DNA from: Escherichia coli
Lineage (GTDB): Bacteria > Pseudomonadota > Gammaproteobacteria > Enterobacterales > Enterobacteriaceae
Direction: 5' to 3' (one strand)
Length of the DNA: 64,000 nt
Assembly (NCBI RefSeq): GCF_050320075.1
Contig: NZ_CP190018.1
In this document: in pieces, positions 49,091 to 60,829 of the stretch
Numbering within the stretch: position 1 is the first letter of the stretch
Layout: the number at the start of each line of letters is the position of its first letter
The notes under the pieces: generated by a model
Database searches by the model: none
Told to the model about the DNA's origin: nothing
The model's input: only the letters and a program-made list of their open reading frames with translations
Position numbers and translations under genes: made by a program

Positions 49091-51424
49091 TCAGGCTGTT
49101 GCAGGGTCGTCACATTTTGGCAGCCAGTCGCCGTAGCTTTCCTCTTTCAGCGTCAGGTTGGTCTGTATCCCCTGTTTGGTATGGCGCTTCTCGTAATTCA
49201 GTCCGTATTCCTTCAGCATCACCGGCAGCCCCAGCCCGAACATTTTCAGACTGAGTACGTTCCGGTAGCCGTTTGCCTCCATGTAGGCCAGATAGGCGTG
49301 ATAGAGGTATTTACGGTAATTGCGCGGGATGATGCTGGCGTTCCCCATATACATGCCGCTGGTCTGCGGCAGGGTTTCCAGATAGCCGATAAAATCAAAC
49401 GTCGGGTCGGCATCCCGTTTGATGTTCAGCGCCTCGTCTGAGTTCTGCTGGGACTGAAGCAGTGACCGGGCGAGCATCGGGTCGCTGAACTTCTGCATCA
49501 GGTGACGCACGATGACCGCCAGCTCGCGGGTGATTTTGTCCTTAAGCTGCGGGTCGCGCTCCTGCGGGGCTATCTGTTCCGGGAAGTGAATAATCACCCG
49601 CCGGCGTGACACGCCGCCGCTGCGGTCGGTGAAGCGCATCGGGTTATTGTTCACGGCCAGAATTACCGCCGGGATATGCGTGGAGTATGCATCCCGGTAT
49701 TTCGGGTCAACGGACACCGCATCGCCGCCGGTGATGGCCTTGAGTCCGGCACCGTCGCCGCTCCATTTTTCCTGGTCCGGCAGGCGTATCAGTGAGAAGC
49801 CAGTTAACGCGGCACGTTCACGCGGGGATTCCAGCGTCTCGATGGTGGCCGACGTGGCGTTATCCTCACCGGCCAGCAGGGTGGCTATTTCGGCCATGAT
49901 ACTTTTGCCGCTGCCGCCGGGACCGGTCACCTCCAGAAAGAGCTGCCAGTCGTAGCGGTTTGCCAGCACCATAAACAGTGCGGCCAGAATCACGTCGCGT
50001 TTTTCCGCACGACCACCGGCGGCACGGTCAAGCCAGCGCCAGAACGCGGGGGCGTGGGTTTCCAGCGTTTCCCCTTCCACCGGCGGGGTGAAATCCACAT
50101 CGCACAGGGTGCGCATCCAGTGTGACGGACTGTGCGGGTGGAACGTGCCGCTCTGCGTGTCGAGCACGCCGTTACGAAAGCCAATCAGGCGGCGGGAGGG
50201 GGCTTCCTGCTGCGGAATAATCAGCTTCAGGGTGTCCACCACGGAGGCCACCTTCCCGGAGGAGAACGGCGCGCGCAGACGCTGAAACAGCCCGGCCACA
50301 TCCCGGGCAAAGTCCTGTGGTGGCAGCACCTTCCAGACACCATTTTCATAACGGGACAGAAGCTGGCCGTTGGCATCAACCGCGAGCGCCTCGCCGTAAT
50401 GCTCATAGATACGCATGGCCTTTTCGCTGGTACTCATGGCGGAAAACTCCGCTTCGCTCATGGTGTCGAACGGGCTTTCAGCCGGTGGCCGGATGGCATC
50501 ATAAATGGCCTTACGGGTGGCTTCCCCGCCGTACTGCGTGAAGGCATCATTCCAGTCACCGAAGACCGGCGGCAGGGCAACAACACCTTCACACGCATCT
50601 GCGGCTGCGGCGGCTTTTTTCTGGCCGTCACCGCTGAGGTCACGGTCAGCAGCAAGGACAATCTGACAGGCCGGATGCTTCTGCCGGGCAAGGCTGGCCA
50701 GAGAAAGGAGATTCACGGAAGAAAGCGCCACCATCACCGTTTCACCGGTCAGGTGATGCACGGTAAGTGCGGTCGCGTATCCCTCCGCTATCCACAGACG
50801 TTTTCCGGCCTGATTCTGTCCTTCAAGGGTGTGACAGGTGCCCCTGACCTGTCCGCCTTTCAGGGTGCGCTTACGGCCGTCAGCACTGATTAACTGAAGG
50901 TTAACCAGTTCGCCGCTGTCGTCATACAGTGGCACCACAAGGTCACCGGCGCGCCAGCTCACGCCACCGGCTCTGTGTGTGCCGGTCAGCATCCGGCATT
51001 CCCGGCCGGGAAAGCCCTTGCGGGTCAGGTAGGCGTTACCGGTTCCGGGACGGGTTTTCGCCATCAGGGTTTGTGCCAGTGCGGCGGCGTTCTTCCGGGC
51101 AGCGTCTGTTTCAGCACCGGCGGCGGTCGTCACTGCCGGGTCAGCCGGGGGCAGGCTGCCGGTCACGGCAGCCACCTTTGCGGCCGCGTCGGACGGGGAA
51201 ACACCAAACACCTTTTCAACCAGTTTCAGGCCGTCACCGGCACCACACTGATTGCAGTACCAGGTGCCGCGCCCCTCCCTGTCATCAAAACGGAAGCGGT
51301 CACTCCCGCCACAGACCGGACAGGGCTGATGACGGTTCTTCAGCACCTGAATCCCCAGCGCCGGGAGAATACGCGGCCAGTGGCCGAGCGCATGGCTGAC
51401 GGTGGCGGTTACGTTCATTTTCAT
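49091..51424 (-). CDS. P4 alpha-like primase/helicase (replication protein)
   Basis: 777-aa ORF; N-terminal zinc motif CPVCGG..YCNQCG, toprim-like region, central Walker A GPGGSGKS; strong SD AAGGAG upstream. Confidence 0.9.
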   Translation of the reverse strand: MKMNVTATVSHALGHWPRILPALGIQVLKNRHQPCPVCGGSDRFRFDDREGRGTWYCNQCGAGDGLKLVEKVFGVSPSDAAAKVAAVTGSLPPADPAVTTAAGAETDAARKNAAALAQTLMAKTRPGTGNAYLTRKGFPGRECRMLTGTHRAGGVSWRAGDLVVPLYDDSGELVNLQLISADGRKRTLKGGQVRGTCHTLEGQNQAGKRLWIAEGYATALTVHHLTGETVMVALSSVNLLSLASLARQKHPACQIVLAADRDLSGDGQKKAAAAADACEGVVALPPVFGDWNDAFTQYGGEATRKAIYDAIRPPAESPFDTMSEAEFSAMSTSEKAMRIYEHYGEALAVDANGQLLSRYENGVWKVLPPQDFARDVAGLFQRLRAPFSSGKVASVVDTLKLIIPQQEAPSRRLIGFRNGVLDTQSGTFHPHSPSHWMRTLCDVDFTPPVEGETLETHAPAFWRWLDRAAGGRAEKRDVILAALFMVLANRYDWQLFLEVTGPGGSGKSIMAEIATLLAGEDNATSATIETLESPRERAALTGFSLIRLPDQEKWSGDGAGLKAITGGDAVSVDPKYRDAYSTHIPAVILAVNNNPMRFTDRSGGVSRRRVIIHFPEQIAPQERDPQLKDKITRELAVIVRHLMQKFSDPMLARSLLQSQQNSDEALNIKRDADPTFDFIGYLETLPQTSGMYMGNASIIPRNYRKYLYHAYLAYMEANGYRNVLSLKMFGLGLPVMLKEYGLNYEKRHTKQGIQTNLTLKEESYGDWLPKCDDPATA

Positions 51425-51438
51425 GGTGTTGTTCTCCT

Positions 51439-51759
51439 TCAGTGCAGTACCGGCGCTTTTATGTGACGGGCACAGAGTTCATCCATCACAACCAGCCCGA
51501 GAAAGGACAGCGACGGCGCGGCCTTCAGGGGGCCGGATTCCATTAAATCTTCCAGCAGGGCACAGGCTATCTGACGCCCTTTTTCCTCACCGTGCTGGCG
51601 CAGATAAAAGCCTTCCAGCTCAGCGGCGATGGCCGCCTCCAGTGATTCAAGGGTGAGATGCGGGTAGCGGTGCTGACGTTCGCACACGGTCAGCCAGGCA
51701 CAGGCGACAGCGCGACGGTAAAGGGCAGCGCGTAAGACGGGCGGTAAGGGTGTTTTCAT
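51439..51759 (-). CDS. 106-aa protein upstream of alpha (P4 orf106/Cnr-like by position and size)
   Basis: ORF with GGAGG SD 7 nt upstream; ends 14 bp before the alpha start; functional name is from recalled P4 gene order only. Confidence 0.6.
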
Positions 51760-51894
51760 TTGCTTTCCTCCCTGTGACAGATGACTGCATTCCGTGCCGG
51801 TTGCATTAACTGATAAGGCATATCTGCGTCTCCTGAAGACGTGCGTATCCCTGCGCGAATACGCACATTTAATTTTTCGGGTGTCGTTTTTTAA

Positions 51895-52350
51895 TTACAG
51901 ATAATTGCGGTAACTGTTATCCGGGGTGATTTCCGGGTCAGACTCCGTGCGGGGAATTTCCCGCCATTCCCGCGCCACCGGTGCCGCCCGGCTGACCGGA
52001 ACAGGGGCCTGCGGGTAAATATCCAGATATTTCTCCCGCCATTTCTGTAATTCCGGGTCTCCGGCCATTTCTTTCAGTACCGCATGCCGGTTTACGGGGC
52101 TGCGTTTAAACAGGTCAGGACGGTCACAGGTAAATTCCCGCAGAAAACGCCCCAGCGGGATGTCTGTGGTGCGTCCGTCAGCGAGGATACGCACAAGGAT
52201 ACTGAATTTACGGCGGTACGGGTTCCAGACAATGTCCGGGCAGCGGTACGGCATTTCCCACGGAATACCGTCTTCCAGAATGCCGACCACGGCCACATCG
52301 GGAAAACCGGCAGAACGGTAAATCTCACCGGGCTGGGGAAAATCAAACAT
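51895..52350 (-). CDS. 151-aa hypothetical protein (P4 orf151-like)
   Basis: Start ATG overlaps the stop of the upstream gene (ATGTTTGA); same operon. Confidence 0.6.
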   Translation of the reverse strand: MFDFPQPGEIYRSAGFPDVAVVGILEDGIPWEMPYRCPDIVWNPYRRKFSILVRILADGRTTDIPLGRFLREFTCDRPDLFKRSPVNRHAVLKEMAGDPELQKWREKYLDIYPQAPVPVSRAAPVAREWREIPRTESDPEITPDNSYRNYL

Positions 52351-52630
52351 GCGTCCTGTCTCCCCGGTCTTTCTGCTGGGCGAGAAAATCGCGGCACAGG
52401 CCTTTGGCTTTCAGCTCATTCAGCACAAAATCAATATCTTCATTCAGGTAGCTGAAAATATGCGGAATGTAGAGCTGATGCAGGCCGGAGAGTTCACGGT
52501 GAATCAAATCACCCCCAACAAACTGGGATACGGCGCTGGCGCGGTTGAGCTTATGGTAAGCCTCAATGCTGAGGTGTTCACGGGCGTCATGACGCGCTGA
52601 GACGGTCTGAGGGGCTTTTTTATTACGCAC
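52343..52630 (-). CDS. 95-aa hypothetical protein, GTG start (possibly P4 epsilon-like)
   Basis: Track ORF 52343..52915 has an implausible N-terminus overlapping the upstream gene; GTG at 52630 is preceded by GGAGG at 6-nt spacing, giving [28 protein letters not shown].. Confidence 0.5.
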
Positions 52631-53222
52631 GGGACACCTCCACCACCGGCAGACGGGCAGCAAGGGAGAGCACATAGTCACGGACAAGGGAACGGCGGGC
52701 ACTGCGTTCATCACCGGCGACGGTGCGAAGCATACAGATACGGGGATGACGGTCTGCGCGACGGACAGCCGCAAACACAAAGACAAATTCAGGGTGTGAG
52801 GGGGTAAGGGTTGTAGCCATGATGGCAGCCTCCTGTGAATAGCAAATAACGCTATCGCCGGAGTTCTCACGCTCGATGGCGATAGCCCAGACGGGGGTGA
52901 GAATACCGGCTTCACAGGATACCGGCCAGCCCGGAGGCTGCCCCGCCTGAGCTACCATTGACTCTGCGGCATAATGAGCGGACGCGGGCAGGATGCACGG
53001 AATGCCATCTGCACGACTGACCACACACCACACCATAATCTGGCGCTCTGTGGCATTGATTGCGACACAAAAAAAGACGCGTGGCGCGTCATATGTCGCC
53101 TGTGAATTGCTCGGGTTCTCACGCCCGGCTGCCGATTTTGCGGCAGCGGAAAAACTATATCCGCAAATGCCGGAAAAAGGCAAGCCAGAAAAAGGGACTT
53201 TTTGCAGAGCGGGCATCATCAT
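52623..53222 (-). CDS. 199-aa hypothetical protein (P4 orf199-like)
   Basis: ATGATGATG at 53222-53214 overlaps the vis stop (ATGA coupling); track ORF 52623..53267 extends into vis in another frame. Confidence 0.5.
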
Positions 53223-53485
53223 GCGTCGTACCCCCGTTTGCGTCCGGCAATGCGCCCGGCCATCCATGCGGTGACTTCAGAGTGCAGCCAGGCCACATTT
53301 TTACCGCCAAGACTCACCTGCGGCGGAAATTCCCCTTTACGGATGAGTTCATAGATGGTCGAGCGTGACAGGCCGCACAGGTGCATCACTTCCGGCAGAC
53401 GTAAAAAACGCTCCTGCGTGATGTCCGGCAGCGGCATCAGTGGCGTCACAGGGGCGGGAGACGGGGAAGAAAAAACAGCTTGCAT
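53219..53485 (-). CDS. AlpA/Vis-family phage regulator (excisionase-like HTH), 88 aa
   Basis: ..[44 protein letters not shown].. AlpA-type HTH; first gene of the leftward operon. Confidence 0.8.
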
Positions 53486-53587
53486 CGGGCTACCTCGTTA
53501 ATGTCCATACAGCACCGGATAAGTCCGTCCGGCTTCGGGTAGCGCTTTATTTTGTGAATATTTTCAGCAGACGCAACAGGGGGGATT

Positions 53588-53605
53588 TGTTCCGGCAGTC
53601 TTACA
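53588..53605 (-). promoter_or_regulatory. TGT-N12-ACA dyad (Ogr/Delta activator-type box) upstream of the vis-alpha operon
   Basis: TGTTCCGGCAGTCTTACA about 100 bp upstream of the vis start; dyad geometry as in P2/P4 late promoters. Confidence 0.45.
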
Positions 53606-53764
53606 ATGGCTGTGTATTTTTTGTTCATCTCCACTTAAAGTCATTTAAAGCCACTTAAAGCAATTCGTAATTTTTATAGTGAAATACAAATCGTTTTTTC
53701 TTATTCATTCCCGGCGAATTAATAAAAACAAACAGTAATAAACAGCACAAAAAGCCCATCAACG

Positions 53765-53869
53765 GGTGAACAGTGGTGAACAGACGGTGAACAGTCATTA
53801 CTGCGATTGTTCACCCTTTAACTTACTGTATTACTTATCTTTTTTATTAAGGTGAACAGAGGTGAACAG
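53765..53869. repeat. Iteron cluster (GGTGAACAG x5 direct, 1 inverted), ori-like
   Basis: GGTGAACAG at 53765, 53775, 53786, 53851, 53861; inverted TGTTCACC at 53808-53815; same 8-mer as the cluster at 48948-49040. Confidence 0.8.
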
Positions 53870-53948
53870 TAAAATATAAAAAAAACAAACAGTAAGCCGG
53901 TTTTTCCTGCGACCTTTTCCTGGCTTGCCGGTCTGAGGATGAGTCTCC

Positions 53949-53966
53949 TGTGTCAGGGCTGGCACA
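53949..53966 (+). promoter_or_regulatory. TGT-N12-ACA dyad (Delta/Ogr box) of the sid promoter
   Basis: TGTGTCAGGGCTGGCACA centred ~80 bp upstream of the sid ATG. Confidence 0.45.
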
Positions 53967-54038
53967 TCTGCAATGCGTCGTGTTGTTGTCCGGTGTACGT
54001 CACAATTTTCTTAACCTGAAGTGACGAGGAGCCGGAAA

Positions 54039-54773
54039 ATGTCTGACAACACCATCCCTGAATATCTGCAACCCGCGCTGGCACAACTGGAAAAGGCCAG
54101 AGCCGCCCATCTTGAGAACGCCCGCCTGATGGATGAGACCGTCACGGCCATTGAACGGGCAGAACAGGAAAAAAATGCGCTGGCGCAGGCCGACGGAAAC
54201 GACGCTGACGACTGGCGCACGGCCTTTCGTGCAGCCGGTGGTGTCCTGAGCGACGAGCTGAAACAGCGCCACATTGAGCGCGTGGCACGCCGGGAGCTGG
54301 TACAGGAATATGACAATCTGGCCGTGGTGCTGAATTTTGAACGTGAACGCCTGAAAGGGGCGTGTGACAGCACGGCCACCGCCTACCGGAAGGCACATCA
54401 TCACCTGCTGAGTCTGTATGCAGAGCATGAGCTGGAACACGCCCTGAATGAAACCTGTGAGGCGCTTGTCCGGGCAATGCATCTGAGCATCCAGGTACAG
54501 GAAAATCCGCTCGCCAACACCACCGGCCATCAGGGCTACGTCGCGCCGGAAAAGGCTGTCATGCAGCAGGTGAAATCATCGCTGGAGCAGAAAATTAAAC
54601 AGATGCAAATCAGCCTCACCGGCGAGCCGGTTCTCCGGCTGACCGGACTGTCAGCGGCAACACTCCCGCACATGGATTATGAGGTGGCAGGCACACCGGC
54701 ACAGCGCAAGGTGTGGCAGGACAAAATAGACCAGCAGGGAGCAGAGCTTAAGGCCAGAGGACTGCTGTCATGA
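54039..54773 (+). CDS. sid: P4 Sid-like capsid size-determination (external scaffold) protein, 244 aa
   Basis: Start MSDNTIPEYLQPALAQLEK.. inside track ORF 54021..54773; coiled-coil-rich; stop overlaps the delta start (ATGA). Confidence 0.8.
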   Translation: MSDNTIPEYLQPALAQLEKARAAHLENARLMDETVTAIERAEQEKNALAQADGNDADDWRTAFRAAGGVLSDELKQRHIERVARRELVQEYDNLAVVLNFERERLKGACDSTATAYRKAHHHLLSLYAEHELEHALNETCEALVRAMHLSIQVQENPLANTTGHQGYVAPEKAVMQQVKSSLEQKIKQMQISLTGEPVLRLTGLSAATLPHMDYEVAGTPAQRKVWQDKIDQQGAELKARGLLS

Positions 54774-55270
54774 TTTACTGCCCGTCGTGTGGACATGTTG
54801 CTCACACCCGTCGCGCACATTTCATGGACGATGGCACCAAGATAATGATTGCACAGTGCCGGAATATTTATTGCTCTGCGACATTTGAAGCGAGTGAAAG
54901 CTTTTTCTCTGACAGTAAAGATTCAGGAATGGAATACATTTCAGGCAAACAGAGATACCGCGATTCACTGACGTCGGCCTCCGGCAGTATGAAACGCCCG
55001 AAAAGAATGCTTGTTACCGGATATTGTTGTCGGAGATGTAAAGGCCTTGCGCTGTCAAGAACATCGCGGCGTCTGTCTCAGGAAGTCACCGAGCGTTTTT
55101 ATGTGTGCACGGATCCGGGCTGTGGTCTGGTGTTTAAAACGCTTCAGACCATCACCCGCTTCATTGTCCGCCCGGTCACGCCGGACGAACTGGCAGAAAA
55201 CCTGCATGAAAAACAGGAACTGCCGCCAGTACGGTTAAAAACACAATCATATTCGCTGCGTCTGGAATGA
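54770..55270 (+). CDS. P4 Delta-like late-gene activator (tandem Ogr-type zinc fingers), 166 aa
   Basis: Two Cys4 motifs (CPSCGH..CRNIYC and CCRRCKG..CTDPGCG). Confidence 0.85.
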   Translation: MIYCPSCGHVAHTRRAHFMDDGTKIMIAQCRNIYCSATFEASESFFSDSKDSGMEYISGKQRYRDSLTSASGSMKRPKRMLVTGYCCRRCKGLALSRTSRRLSQEVTERFYVCTDPGCGLVFKTLQTITRFIVRPVTPDELAENLHEKQELPPVRLKTQSYSLRLE

Positions 55271-55343
55271 GGGCTGCCGGTTAACACCGGCCGTCGCCAC
55301 ACACCGTATTTTTATTCTTCAGCATGATGAGAAAGAGATAACG

Positions 55344-55916
55344 ATGGAAAGCACAGCCTTACAGCAGGCCTTTGACACCTGTCAGAATAACAAAGCAGCA
55401 TGGCTGCAACGCAAAAATGAGCTGACTGCGGCCGAACAGGAATATCTGCGGCTTCTGTCAGGAGAAGGCAGAAACGTCAGTCACCTGGACGAATTACGCA
55501 ATATTATCGAAGTCAGAAAATGGCAGGTGAATCAGGCCGCCGGTCGTTATATTCGTTCGCATGAAGCCGTTCAGCACATCAGCATCCGCGACCGGCTGAA
55601 TGATTTTATGCAGCAGCACGGCACAGTACTGGCGGCCGCACTGGCACCGGAGCTGATGGGCTACAGTGAGCTGACGGCCATTGCCCGAAACTGTGCCATA
55701 CAGCGTGCCACAGATGCCCTGCGTGAAGCCCTTCTGTCCTGGCTTGCGAAGGGTGAAAAAATTAATTATTCCGTACAGGATAGCGACATTTTAACGACCA
55801 TCGGATTCAGGCCTGACGCGGCTTCGGTGGATGACAGCCGTGAAAAATTCACCCCTGCGCAGAACATGATTTTTTCGCGCAAAAGTGCGCAACTGGCATC
55901 ACATCAGTCTGTGTAA
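55344..55916 (+). CDS. psu: P4 Psu-like polarity suppression / capsid decoration protein, 190 aa
   Basis: 190-aa ORF following sid and delta; lengths 244/166/190 match my recollection of P4. Confidence 0.8.
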   Translation: MESTALQQAFDTCQNNKAAWLQRKNELTAAEQEYLRLLSGEGRNVSHLDELRNIIEVRKWQVNQAAGRYIRSHEAVQHISIRDRLNDFMQQHGTVLAAALAPELMGYSELTAIARNCAIQRATDALREALLSWLAKGEKINYSVQDSDILTTIGFRPDAASVDDSREKFTPAQNMIFSRKSAQLASHQSV

Positions 55917-55950
55917 AACTCCCCGAAAATCCGCCCGTTTTTACTGAAAA

Positions 55951-55983
55951 AAGCCATGCATCGATAAGGTGCATGGCTTTGCA
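55951..55983 (+). terminator. Intrinsic terminator after psu
   Basis: Hairpin GCCATGCATCGATAAGGTGCATGGC followed by TTT. Confidence 0.6.
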
Positions 55984-56080
55984 TGCGTTTTCCTGCCTCA
56001 TTTTCTGCAAACCGTGCCATTCCCGGCGCGGTCTGAGCGTGTCAGTACAACTGCATTAAAACCGCCCCGCAAAGCGGGCG

Positions 56081-56099
56081 GGCGAGGCGGGGAAAGCAC
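56081..56099. other. cos site (P2/P4-type 19-nt cohesive end sequence)
   Basis: GGCGAGGCGGGGAAAGCAC inside a GC-rich palindromic context (AAACCGCCCCGCAAAGCGGGCGGGCGAGGCGGGG..); matches the P2/P4 cohesive end as I recall it. Confidence 0.7.
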
Positions 56100-56303
56100 C
56101 GCGCGCTAAACCTGATGAATAAGGAATATTTTAAAAACATTTGTGGATATGAATATTTGGGTTGTAAATGAGTGTTTTTATCTGTTTTTATGTGCTGTGA
56201 AGCAATGTTTGAGTCGATATTTTTATAAAGCTCAATAAAAATTACATTATCATTGATAAGAATGGTTGTCGGATTAACACGTTTTTAAGCTATTTATATA
56301 TAA

Positions 56304-56332
56304 TTAAACCTCGGCAAGGTTGCTGAGGTTTA
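56304..56332 (-). terminator. Putative terminator downstream of the cargo gene
   Basis: Inverted repeat TAAACCTCGGCA..TGCTGAGGTTTA just past the stop at 56350, followed by AT-rich sequence on the minus strand. Confidence 0.45.
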
Positions 56333-56349
56333 ATCGATTGGTTAATTAT

Positions 56350-59076
56350 TTAGTTGATTAGGTGTGACTCAGTTGCAGAGTGACCTTTTTTTGTCCTAAC
56401 AAACTTGATAGCAAGTGTTTTTCCTCTAATGTAATTAGACCAGTTATATTTTTCTTCACCAAGGCAACTGTCCCTATGAATTAATATTTCTTTTCCATCA
56501 GAATCTCTGGCAAAAACAAATCCTTTTCCTAATGTAAGATCTGAATATATTTCTGCTATAGAATATCCATTATTTTTCCATGTGATTTGTTCGAATTCGG
56601 CAATTGTTTTAGATGAGCTAAAAGCACTCCATTTGGGGGAGGTGAATGGGTTGTTTGGTATTTTTGTTGCTCTCATTGTTGAAATGATATTAACTACTTC
56701 TTTACTTGATATCTTAAAATCTTTAGAGAACTTTGTAATGTCGGCAAGATTGCTTTCAGCAAAATCAATTACTTTTATAATGAATTGTTGAGATAGTTTA
56801 TCAATGTTGTTTTTGATCGTGTCACAAAAAAGATTTAAAGATTTAATAGCTTCGTCAGAAAGTCGATCGCTGATGTTTTCTTTTTCAAATATAAATTCCA
56901 ATATGTCGATAACTTCAGATATGTTTTTTTCTACAGACTCAGGGTTAATGTCGAAGTTATTTTCACAAGAACGCTTTAATGCGGCGACTCTAAAGTAAGC
57001 TTGCTCTTGAGGTGAATGTGAATCTTTCCATTTTTCAGTGTATTCAAGAATGTCTGGGTATTCTTTACCATAAAGATGAACACCTAAATACTCTCGCATT
57101 ATTATAGAAGACAGTACTTCGCCTGAATGCTCAACTCTGTCGAATCCAGAATCAATCAATTCCTGAGATACTTTTTGAGCCTCTATAAAATCACCAATAT
57201 CTTTATAGATATACATCAGAGTTAAGTTGTTTAGTGGATTTTCAGACTCTATGCCTATTGCTGACTTTATACAAGAAATAGCACCTAAATTATCACCCTG
57301 CTTATGTAGTATTCTGGCATATGTTCGCATAAATAGAGGATTTTTTTGATATATTTGAGCGAGTGTTTTAAAATCCTCATAAATAACATTTAATTTATCT
57401 TTGTTAACGCTTTTGTAGCCTAAAATTTTATTTGCTCTGTTAACAGCTATTTGCAAGGAGTCAGGGCTATTATTAGGGATGAATCGATAATCAAACCGAT
57501 CTATTTCTTTATCTTGTTGGAATTTTTGTAAGTGCAATATTTCAGTTCGTTGTTTTCTTGCTTTTTCAGCAATAATGTTTCTGACGGTGTTATTTCTTGG
57601 TGATGTGATTAATAGTTCTTTGATTGATTCACTTAAAGAAAACTCTTCTTCTCCCGTATTAGATGTTTTCCGGGATACTAAAGATGTGTTCAATATTTCT
57701 TTAATCGCTTTTGCTATTGAGTCGGGATCTGAATCTAAGAAATGAGTTAAAAATGATCTTGATGATGCTCCGGTGACAAACAAGCATTCAAGAATAGATA
57801 TTGCATCGTTACTTAAAACATCTAATAGATTATTAAATGAAAATGCAGCGATATCTTTTTTGGATTTTTCTATTGAGTCAGGTAAAGCCATTCCATTATA
57901 AATGGAATCTATTGTAAGCCTTATTGCTAAGGGGTTAAAATGAGTCACTTCAGTAATTCTCGTGAGTTCTTCTGGGGTTAAGTTTATTATCCCTCGTTTA
58001 TCTGAATATGATTTGGCTAGATGGAAAGCCACACCAGATTGCAATTCCTTAAGTGAAATTGGGTAAGCTCCGTCAACCATTATTCGACTAGTGACTACCA
58101 CTTTAAAATTCGAAGGAAGAGTATACTGGAAACGAATGAACTCATCAGGACCATCTCTTAATAAAGTTTCGAGATTATCGATACATAGGAGAGTGCTTTC
58201 TATATCTTGGTCGTTTATAATTTCTGAATATAGATCATCATAGTTTTCTATCTCTTCATCAGGATTAAAAAACTCCACTATTTCTTTTTTTATTTCAGAA
58301 ATGGTGTCAATGTTTTTTAACTCAGAAATACCATCAGCAGTGAGATGATGTTTCTTTAATGTTAAATAGCAAATGTTTTTGAATTTCTCATTGGCTTTTG
58401 GTGAGATGCTCAATTCTTTTAAGAAATCTAAAATTAAAGCGGTTTTTCCTACGCCTCCAGGAGCTACAACCGCAATGAATGGAGTTCGATCGTTATTTAT
58501 TGCTGATAATAACTCTTTCTTTTCACCTTTACGGCCTATAAGGCTGGTAATGTCGTGATCAAATTTATCAGGCAGGTTGTTATTAATTTCCCAGCTAATA
58601 GTAGAAAACCATTCTTCTGGAGGTGCTTTTAATTGACCAGTAGATGCGGAATAATAAGCATCCTTCACACTTTTTAAACCAAGTACTTCTATATATGGAT
58701 GTGAGGCTATAGCTGCAGCGCAATGCCAGTAATGCTCATGGAATGGTCGGGTTGGATGACTAATTTGATTTCTTATAAAAAATAAATCAACAGCTGTACA
58801 GAACTCTTTCAGTTCTGACAGTTTATCATAGTCAGATGTACCCTTAGCTAATTGCAGGGCATAATTGAAAATTTCACCGATATAACTTGCTTGGATAAGA
58901 GTTTGCGTATTGAAAACGGGACCTCTCCCACGCTCCAGTTCTAGTTTAGAACGAGGTTCGAAATGTTCGCTTAACCTACTTTTACCTCCTGCATCCTCAC
59001 TAACAACATACGCCGCCAATGCTTTTTCTAAGGCATAAACTATCATACTAGTTTTCGTATCAAGATATTCAGACAT
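56350..59076 (-). CDS. STAND (NB-ARC-type) NTPase with N-terminal effector-like domain, helical repeat region and C-terminal beta domain; candidate antiphage defence protein
   Basis: 908-aa AT-rich ORF with SD AAGGA; LIGRKGEKKEL..IAVVAPGGVGKTALIL (Walker A), LLCIDNLE (Walker B), KVVVTSR (RNBS-B-like), HFNPLAIRL (GLPL-like); N-terminal IRNQISH (Rx4H); C-terminal GKGFVFARDSDGKEILIH. Confidence 0.8.
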   Translation of the reverse strand: MSEYLDTKTSMIVYALEKALAAYVVSEDAGGKSRLSEHFEPRSKLELERGRGPVFNTQTLIQASYIGEIFNYALQLAKGTSDYDKLSELKEFCTAVDLFFIRNQISHPTRPFHEHYWHCAAAIASHPYIEVLGLKSVKDAYYSASTGQLKAPPEEWFSTISWEINNNLPDKFDHDITSLIGRKGEKKELLSAINNDRTPFIAVVAPGGVGKTALILDFLKELSISPKANEKFKNICYLTLKKHHLTADGISELKNIDTISEIKKEIVEFFNPDEEIENYDDLYSEIINDQDIESTLLCIDNLETLLRDGPDEFIRFQYTLPSNFKVVVTSRIMVDGAYPISLKELQSGVAFHLAKSYSDKRGIINLTPEELTRITEVTHFNPLAIRLTIDSIYNGMALPDSIEKSKKDIAAFSFNNLLDVLSNDAISILECLFVTGASSRSFLTHFLDSDPDSIAKAIKEILNTSLVSRKTSNTGEEEFSLSESIKELLITSPRNNTVRNIIAEKARKQRTEILHLQKFQQDKEIDRFDYRFIPNNSPDSLQIAVNRANKILGYKSVNKDKLNVIYEDFKTLAQIYQKNPLFMRTYARILHKQGDNLGAISCIKSAIGIESENPLNNLTLMYIYKDIGDFIEAQKVSQELIDSGFDRVEHSGEVLSSIIMREYLGVHLYGKEYPDILEYTEKWKDSHSPQEQAYFRVAALKRSCENNFDINPESVEKNISEVIDILEFIFEKENISDRLSDEAIKSLNLFCDTIKNNIDKLSQQFIIKVIDFAESNLADITKFSKDFKISSKEVVNIISTMRATKIPNNPFTSPKWSAFSSSKTIAEFEQITWKNNGYSIAEIYSDLTLGKGFVFARDSDGKEILIHRDSCLGEEKYNWSNYIRGKTLAIKFVRTKKGHSATESHLIN

Positions 59077-59094: not shown

Positions 59095-60282
59095 TTAAAG
59101 AGTGGTTTGCAATCCCCACCAATTCATTAACTCTATACGTTGTTCTAAATAGGTACTTCTATTGTAAGCTTTTCGAACCTCATTCCTCTCGGAATGCGCC
59201 AATGCTGCTTCAATAACATCAGGATTAAATTCTGCTTCGTTCATTGCCGTACTGGCAATTGATCTTAGTCCATGGGCCACTAACTTACCGCCATAACCTA
59301 TTCTCTTCAAGGCAGCGTTTGCCGTCTGACTGTTCATCGGCTGTTTTGGATCGTTTCTGCTCGGGAAAATATGTTCACGGTGACCACTGATAGGCTTCAT
59401 TACTTCCAAAATACCTAAAGCCTGAGGTGACAAAGGGACAATGTGTTCACGTTTAGCCTTCATTCGTTCGGCGGGAATCGTCCAGAGTTTGGCCTCGAGA
59501 TCGATCTCGACCCACCGAGCACCAGAAGCCTCAGAAGGGCGCACTAGGGTCAGGAGCTGCCACTCGATAAGACAGCGAGTCGGAACAGACAGATTCGACA
59601 TTACCAGAGAACGCATCAGCTTAGGTAATTCTTCGGGTCGTAGCGTGGGCATATTCTGCTTTTTGGGTTTCTCAAATGCCATTCCAACACCTGATGCTGG
59701 ATTTGCATCAATTAGACCAGTGTTTACGGCATAAATCATTATCTCGTTAATGCGCTGTACCAGACGACGTACCGTCTCTAGCGCGCCACGTGCTTTGATT
59801 GGTTCGAGGGTTTCAACAAGTGTTCGGGCTTTGATTTGCTGAACAGGGAGCTCACCGATGGCAGGTAATACATCTTTTTCCAGGGAACGCCAAATGTCTT
59901 TCGCGTAATCAGGGGTAACGCTTTTGCTTTTTATCTGGAACCAGTTGGTCGCAACAGTCGAAAAAATACTGTCTAGAGCTATCTGTTGTTGTTCTTCGAT
60001 AAATTCAGCTTGAACTTGTGGGTCTATACCATTAGCCAACAAAGCAAGGTAATCCGCTCTTAACCGTCGAGCATCAGCAAGTGAAAGGGCGGGGAAAGCA
60101 CCAAGCCCCATCATTGTCCGCTGTTTTGTTGCTGGACGTTGATAACGGAAACGCCACAACTTCTTACCGTTCGTTTTAACGAGCAGAAAAAGGCCATCGC
60201 CATCATGTAACGTTAGATCCTTTTCTAACGCTTTAGCGCGCAGAACTTCGGTGTTGGTCAGGGGGCGTGTTGTTCTTGCCAC
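59095..60282 (-). CDS. P4-family tyrosine integrase
   Basis: 395-aa ORF, GTG start with AAGGAG SD; N-terminal arm-binding-like LTNTEVLRAKALEKDLTLHDGDGLFLLVKTNGKKLWRFRY; C-terminal HGLRS..R..Y catalytic region; adjacent to the ssrA 3' end. Confidence 0.9.
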   Translation of the reverse strand: MARTTRPLTNTEVLRAKALEKDLTLHDGDGLFLLVKTNGKKLWRFRYQRPATKQRTMMGLGAFPALSLADARRLRADYLALLANGIDPQVQAEFIEEQQQIALDSIFSTVATNWFQIKSKSVTPDYAKDIWRSLEKDVLPAIGELPVQQIKARTLVETLEPIKARGALETVRRLVQRINEIMIYAVNTGLIDANPASGVGMAFEKPKKQNMPTLRPEELPKLMRSLVMSNLSVPTRCLIEWQLLTLVRPSEASGARWVEIDLEAKLWTIPAERMKAKREHIVPLSPQALGILEVMKPISGHREHIFPSRNDPKQPMNSQTANAALKRIGYGGKLVAHGLRSIASTAMNEAEFNPDVIEAALAHSERNEVRKAYNRSTYLEQRIELMNWWGLQTTL

Positions 60283-60466: not shown

Positions 60467-60829
60467 TGGTGGAGCTGGCGGGAGTTGAACCCGCGTCCGA
60501 AATTCCTACGTCCTCGGTACTACATGCTTAGTCAGTCTTTACATTCGCTTGCCAGCTGCGGACGGACACGCCACTAACAAACTAGCCTGATTAAGTTTTA
60601 ACGCTTCAACCCCAGGCAGGGCTTCCACGCGATCTCTTTTGGGTTTGACCTCTCTTGATCCCCGTCCTAAGAGCGGAGGCTAGGGAGAGAGGGCTCTAAG
60701 CAGGTTATTAAGCTGCTAAAGCGTAGTTTTCGTCGTTTGCGACTATTTTTTGCGGCTTTTTACGAGGCCAACCGCCCCTCGGCATGCACCTTGGGTTTCG
60801 CAAATCCCGTCGAATCCAGAATCAGCCCC
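60467..60829 (-). ncRNA. ssrA: tmRNA (SsrA), 363 nt
   Basis: Minus strand reads GGGGCTGATTCTGGATTCGACGGGATTTGCGAAACCC..; tag ORF GCAAACGACGAAAACTACGCTTTAGCAGCTTAA (ANDENYALAA*); 3' end ..GCCAGCTCCACCA. Confidence 0.97.

Follow-up and report, generated by a model that had tools for sequence, protein, structure and literature searches.

Between the psu gene and an AT-rich cargo gene of Escherichia coli lies a 19-nt sequence, GGCGAGGCGGGGAAAGCAC, that the earlier note took for the cohesive end (cos) of P2 and P4. Is this identity correct, what kind of element carries the site, and how is the neighbouring cargo related to it? We analysed the whole stretch of DNA around the site, 64,000 nucleotides in length, which we call the window. 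Our answer is that positions 56081-56099 are very probably (at roughly 0.9) the cos cohesive end of an intact, integrated P4-like satellite.

The site itself comprises two nested features:

56081-56099, plus strand: cos cohesive end, identical to P4 1-19 and to P2 cosL 1-19, unique in the window
56046-56106, plus strand: conserved cos core, matching the block conserved in P2-like and P4-like sequences

The 19-mer is present on the plus strand exactly where it had been reported, and it is the sole match in the 64-kb window, both strands included, even with up to three mismatches allowed. At the same tolerance a shuffled-window control gives a mean of 0.03 matches, and simple arithmetic predicts about 5e-7 exact occurrences per 128 kb. 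Comparison with the P2 and P4 references confirms the sequence. Window positions 56081-56106 equal positions 1-26 of P4 (NC_001609) at every base, and the last base of the linear P4 record (X51522 / NC_001609, 11,624 bp) aligns at window position 56080. P2 (NC_001895) has the window 19-mer at its positions 1-19, which are labelled 'cosL; left cohesive end': the first 19 bases are the same in both references, in agreement with the claim that P2 and P4 have a 19-nt cohesive end in common. The same 19-mer and left flank recur in a P2 genome from an independent assembly and in phage fiAA91-ss, where the annotation reads cosR. PMC3931495 gives GGCGAGGCGGGGAAAGCAC as the cohesive end of P2-related phages, GC-rich, 19 nt long and 5'-extruding.

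Uniqueness in the window, together with identity to the reference ends, excludes a chance match. The comparisons support the assignment of the 19-mer as the P2/P4 cos cohesive end, in the orientation and position that it has in P4, downstream of psu. Taking the nick positions from the ends of the reference records, we predict staggered nicks between 56080 and 56081 on the top strand and between 56099 and 56100 on the bottom strand, which would leave 5' overhangs. The cos block is by no means rare: it was found in 2236 of 5426 complete E. coli genomes (~41%).

Fifteen nucleotides of the cos core, GGCGGGGAAAGCACC (56086-56100 at cos), are repeated exactly and in direct orientation at 60088-60102 inside the integrase gene, and the two copies bracket the cargo and most of int. 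We rejected the distal copy as a second cos, since it is accompanied neither by the rest of the 19-mer nor by the core block. Translated in the integrase, it gives the residues G-A-F-P-A of a conserved N-terminal motif; three of the five related ssrA-type int genes have it and P4 int does not. Coding constraint and coincidence are probably behind it.

To delimit the conserved sequence around cos, IMG/VR was scanned for the 19-mer, yielding 117 unique 339-bp contexts, 106 of them P2-like and 11 P4-like. Among the P2-like contexts, the majority base mostly has a frequency of at least 0.8 from about -35 to +26, falling to 0.5-0.7 at a few positions, and the flank to the right of +26 is moderately conserved. 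The P4-like contexts are ~100% conserved up to +26 and at background thereafter. The same limit emerges from an alignment of the junctions in P4, the window and five other E. coli satellites with the same psu/int flanks and different cargo: from -140 or further left, across the 19-mer and to the end of the next seven bases (YGCGCGC), the sequences are practically the same, and they are unrelated beyond.

From the conservation limits in the P2-like and P4-like contexts, the common core corresponds to window positions 56046-56106. These ~61 bp around the 19-mer are identical or nearly identical to the P4 and P2 cores, and they agree in size with the '55-bp core' of P2-family cos, credited to Ziermann & Calendar 1990 in the citing passages of PMC5694545, PMC3931495 and PMC5247547.

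Relative to the P4 cos (NC_001609 / X51522), the 140 nt on the left match the window except for two SNPs, the 7 nt on the right are identical, and both sites follow psu and its terminator. From the eighth nucleotide after the cohesive end onwards, however, the two sequences are unrelated: P4 continues with gop-beta-cII, the window with a single 908-aa STAND gene. The P2 cos (NC_001895) has the identical 19-mer within a block, from about -35 to +7, that it has in common with the window, but its right flank runs into gpQ/gpP and the variable region of P2 is to the left of cos, on the opposite side. At position +1 after the cohesive end P2 has T and the window C, which makes this position polymorphic among satellites.

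The element that carries this cos has the following landmarks:

48764-48786: distal att core at the other end of the satellite, a direct repeat with 60467-60489; the excised circle would be 11,703 bp
48925-56106: P4 core segment, with one crr repeat, alpha, orf106, orf151, epsilon, the cI/immunity RNA region, vis, ori, sid, delta, psu and cos
59095-60282, minus strand: tyrosine integrase of the ssrA-specific type (NCBIfam PRK09692, 581 bits)
60467-60489: att core, the ssrA 3' end, a direct repeat with 48764-48786
60467-60829, minus strand: ssrA (tmRNA gene), called by ARAGORN and Rfam

The direct repeat of the ssrA 3' end thus bounds an element of 11,703 bp, close to the 11,624 bp of P4 and compatible with the ~11.6 kb that the small P4 capsid accommodates, as in P4-like satellites. 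Inside it, window positions 48925-56080 are 98.6% identical in nucleotide sequence to P4 4471-11624. At the protein level, alpha, orf106, orf151, epsilon, the cI ORF, vis, sid, delta and psu each encode a full-length product with 97-100% identity to its P4 counterpart. The P4-like core set (int, psu, delta, sid, vis/alpA, epsilon and the alpha primase-helicase) is complete, int alone being of a different type, and the element lacks the gop, beta and cII genes that P4 has. With P4 Int, which is of the leuX type, the integrase of the window is only 36.6% identical; this distance and the PRK09692-type match fit integration at ssrA instead of leuX. The exact psu-cos-cargo-int arrangement was found in 7 of 5426 complete E. 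coli genomes.

Several further observations concern the element and its surroundings. Rfam places the C4 antisense RNA, isrK and the c4-a1b1 targets at 52875-53160 on the minus strand; this region is the CI immunity RNA system of P4, intact here. The window copy has one 120-bp crr repeat (48925-49045), while P4 (4291-4590) and E. coli YZLc1-3 have two. The YZLc1-3 satellite is otherwise identical to the window copy, the crr difference amounting to 181 bp, and the single crr looks like the product of an unequal crossover between repeats. The DNA directly outside the distal att core, at 43900-48603 (plus strand) and about 41600-43600, contains the ypjA/ehaD autotransporter adhesin gene, YpjCB-family genes and a recombinase pseudogene fragment, apparently left over from earlier insertions at ssrA. 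At 40808-40883 ARAGORN predicts a tRNA-Met (CAT); RefSeq names the same tRNA tRNA-Ile in YZLc1-3.

On the left of cos, three features are found:

55344-55916, plus strand: psu (polarity suppression / capsid decoration protein), full length, 96.8% amino acid identity to P4 Psu
55950-55991, plus strand: terminator-like hairpin downstream of psu (hairpin 55950-55980, perfect 11-bp arms) with a T-rich tail
56062-56081, plus strand: imperfect inverted repeat, CCGCCCCGC AAA GCGGGCGG (CCGCCC(C)GC/GCGGGCGG), abutting the left nick

The psu gene, annotated as phage polarity suppression protein, stops at 55916. The hairpin downstream of it has an RNA folding energy (dG) of -22 kcal/mol with a z-score of -3.55 and is identical in P4. 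The placement of cos between the psu terminator and the AT-rich cargo was borne out on both sides, with this hairpin to the left and, directly after the cos block, a drop in GC content from ~54% to ~29%. A 46-aa ORF (55969-56109, plus strand) crosses cos, and its equivalent is labelled 'hypothetical protein' in at least one RefSeq genome; we dismissed it as spurious, likely an annotation artefact, because its 3' part falls in non-conserved DNA.

The 'GC-rich palindromic block' that had been described around cos shrinks on inspection to the short imperfect inverted repeat at 56062-56081. Its stem is conserved and its loop differs between P2 and P4, but it folds no more stably than shuffled sequence (z -1.5). 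One could imagine that this hairpin at the left edge of cos also works as a leftward terminator, insulating the late operon of the satellite from transcription in the cargo slot. A terminator consensus scan does flag the minus strand from 56081 to 56062, where a 6-bp GC stem is followed by TTTTAATGCA, and cargo genes are found in either orientation. Yet one such site is what shuffled sequence yields (mean 1.0), the minus-strand fold is not better than shuffled either (z -0.55), the cargo gene already has a strong terminator of its own (56303-56334), and cos function alone explains the conservation. We consider the additional role unlikely, and the cos-adjacent hairpin, being on a par with shuffled sequence, was rejected as a significant structure or terminator.

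The left flank also bears on the nature of the whole element. P2 has the identical 19-mer and core block, and the site might on that account be assigned to a P2-like helper prophage instead of a satellite; but the left flank, psu with its terminator, is that of P4 at 97% identity, and on the right gpQ/gpP are missing and the AT-rich cargo gene and the integrase stand in their place. The P2-type right flank (TGGCGGTGGTGCTG...) is absent. With P4 psu on one side and cargo and int on the other, a P2 prophage cos is refuted, and we give this reading practically no weight. Nor does the 64-kb window hold a P2-like helper anywhere else: it has one cos only and no P2 genes. A satellite may, on the other hand, have been immobilised recently, its intact cos persisting as a relic that is no longer used. 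The ssrA site of E. coli is known to carry the cryptic P4-like element CP4-57, and a single crr repeat is left in the window copy. Two of the seven carrier genomes, moreover, are without a match to a P2-type terminase. This last count comes from a helper search of the seven genomes at megablast sensitivity with a chimeric query, the cargo slot joined to P2 gene P: five genomes have a second matching place, probably the P2-type terminase gene, and in YZLc1-3 and EC13 no such gene was found at this sensitivity. Against a cryptic state stand the core genes, without exception full length and 97-100% identical to P4, and the presence of both att cores. Furthermore, the same element is found in seven unrelated isolates, with chicken, human and mink as hosts, which argues for recent mobility. 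We regard a cryptic satellite as very unlikely.

The DNA to the right of cos is organised as follows:

56107 to about 59110: variable cargo slot (P4 hotspot), ~32% GC, in place of P4 gop-beta-cII
56350-59076, minus strand: cargo gene, 908 aa, with a putative HEPN-like N-domain, an NB-ARC-type STAND NTPase, TPR-like repeats and a C-terminal beta-barrel

The boundaries of the slot were set by homology. On the left, the break falls directly after YGCGCGC, 7 nt past the cohesive end, in P4, in six E. coli variants and in 11 P4-like contigs. On the right, homology to other ssrA-type satellites restarts at 59111-59114, ~16-19 nt inside the int 3' end. The left break at +7 and the right restart delimit the slot to 56107 to ~59110. 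As homology ends inside the int 3' end (59095-59114), exchange of the cargo module takes the final few codons of the integrase along with it; across the variants, int measures 1188-1212 nt. Between the same flanks, other strains carry SIR2, DUF262+HEPN or one of three different hypothetical genes, and P4 carries gop-beta-cII: as in a hotspot, the genes vary between conserved psu-cos and int flanks. The earlier note had the cargo gene travelling right next to cos. This is accurate for the variable module, which starts at 56107, but only approximately so for the gene, whose near end (the stop, at 56350) lies 250 bp from cos.

The slot holds a single ORF, WP_089620504, with a terminator hairpin at 56303-56334 (z -6.4). 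The protein belongs to a large family, whose members have ~900-920 aa and which is spread over Bacteroidota, Vibrio, Shewanella, Klebsiella and other taxa; relatives have Pfam matches to NB-ARC, AAA_16 and TPR. In an alignment-based AlphaFold model (mean pLDDT 83.7), a helical N-domain is followed by a STAND NTPase, helical repeats and a C-terminal beta-barrel, and the best PDB matches of the model in Foldseek are SAMD9, Apaf-1 and plant NLR resistosomes. The Pfam matches in relatives and the fold matches together give the P-loop NTPase and C-terminal repeat sensor of a STAND protein, with K211 in the Walker A motif. HEPN RNase domains have as their hallmark an all-alpha fold and a conserved Rx4-6H motif; the N-domain of the cargo protein is a putative effector that may be HEPN-like, with R102 and H107 as candidate residues of the motif. 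A 16-nt exact direct repeat, GTCGAATCCAGAATCA, joins the cargo gene (57139-57154) and the 5' part of ssrA (60809-60824), probably by chance.

The protein resembles the antiviral STAND or NLR-like systems (Avs/AVAST and the TIR-NLR of the P4 hotspot) in its NB-ARC-like STAND NTPase, its TPR-like repeats and its N-terminal putative effector. It differs from Avs and TIR-NLR in that the N-domain looks HEPN-like, not TIR, SIR2 or nuclease, and in the extra C-terminal beta-barrel. No Avs model of PADLOC matches it, the only hit being a weak one to PDC-S27 (E 2.6e-4, 44 residues), and for this reason we file it as a protein that may work like Avs and not as a member. PHROGs and PDB sequence searches with the cargo returned nothing informative. 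Rousset et al. 2022 (PMC9122126) describe hotspot STAND proteins with repeats and swappable N-terminal effector domains, and Table S1 of the same paper lists WP_089620504 as a 'hypothetical' hotspot occupant. The protein is catalogued solely as 'hypothetical' or 'P-loop NTPase', and we found no reported phenotype for WP_089620504 in the literature. From its domains we infer that the cargo is a candidate defence gene.

How could such an element be mobilised? By analogy with P4, the ssrA-type Int, presumably paired with Vis, would excise it as a circle, which would then replicate through alpha, ori and crr. In the presence of a P2-like helper, the terminase gpM/gpP would bind the core block and introduce nicks 19 nt apart; the resulting linear genome with 5' cohesive ends would be packaged in a helper capsid shrunken by Sid. 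Recognition of the common cos by the P2-type helper terminase is attributed to Lindqvist et al. 1993 and Ziermann & Calendar 1990 where PMC9122126 cites them. The mature linear genome would open with the cohesive end, the seven conserved bases and the cargo, and psu would come last. With only 7 bp between the cohesive end and the slot, the cargo would make up the leading ~3 kb of the packaged DNA and be transduced with the satellite. As far as its sequence allows us to judge, the element should be packageable, given a helper, as had been proposed.

The sharp junction at +7 is most simply the right-hand limit of the sequence needed for cos function: beyond it, up to the last few int codons, DNA would be freely exchangeable. 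The junction may also be the footprint of a cassette swap that starts from the terminase-cut left end and is completed by a second crossover in or near the int 3' end. Rousset et al. 2022 (PMC9122126) speculate in this direction, with cohesive ends as recombination substrates. We hold such an origin of the junction to be a tentative idea, with the odds against it. If it were true, cos would itself drive the exchange of defence cassettes and not simply lie beside them.

Most of this arrangement has precedents. According to Rousset et al. 2022 (PMC9122126), P2 and P4 have a common core cos, with a hotspot directly beside cos in both element types; Figure 1A of that paper depicts the conserved and the variable cos-proximal sequence. 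The hotspot-cos picture is repeated and extended by de Sousa & Rocha 2022 (PMC8628076) and by a 2026 preprint (10.64898/2026.02.27.708500). In the published P4 defence hotspot the order is the same as here (psu-cos, cargo in either orientation, int), and we see no substantive difference. The identity of cos and the cos-hotspot arrangement are correct but already known; the one mildly new item is what the domains suggest about a cargo protein hitherto listed as 'hypothetical'.

The identification of cos is useful for annotating the window. It marks the island at ssrA as a probably mobile, helper-dependent satellite and not as a fixed genomic island. Its single cargo gene could therefore move between strains in P2-type particles.
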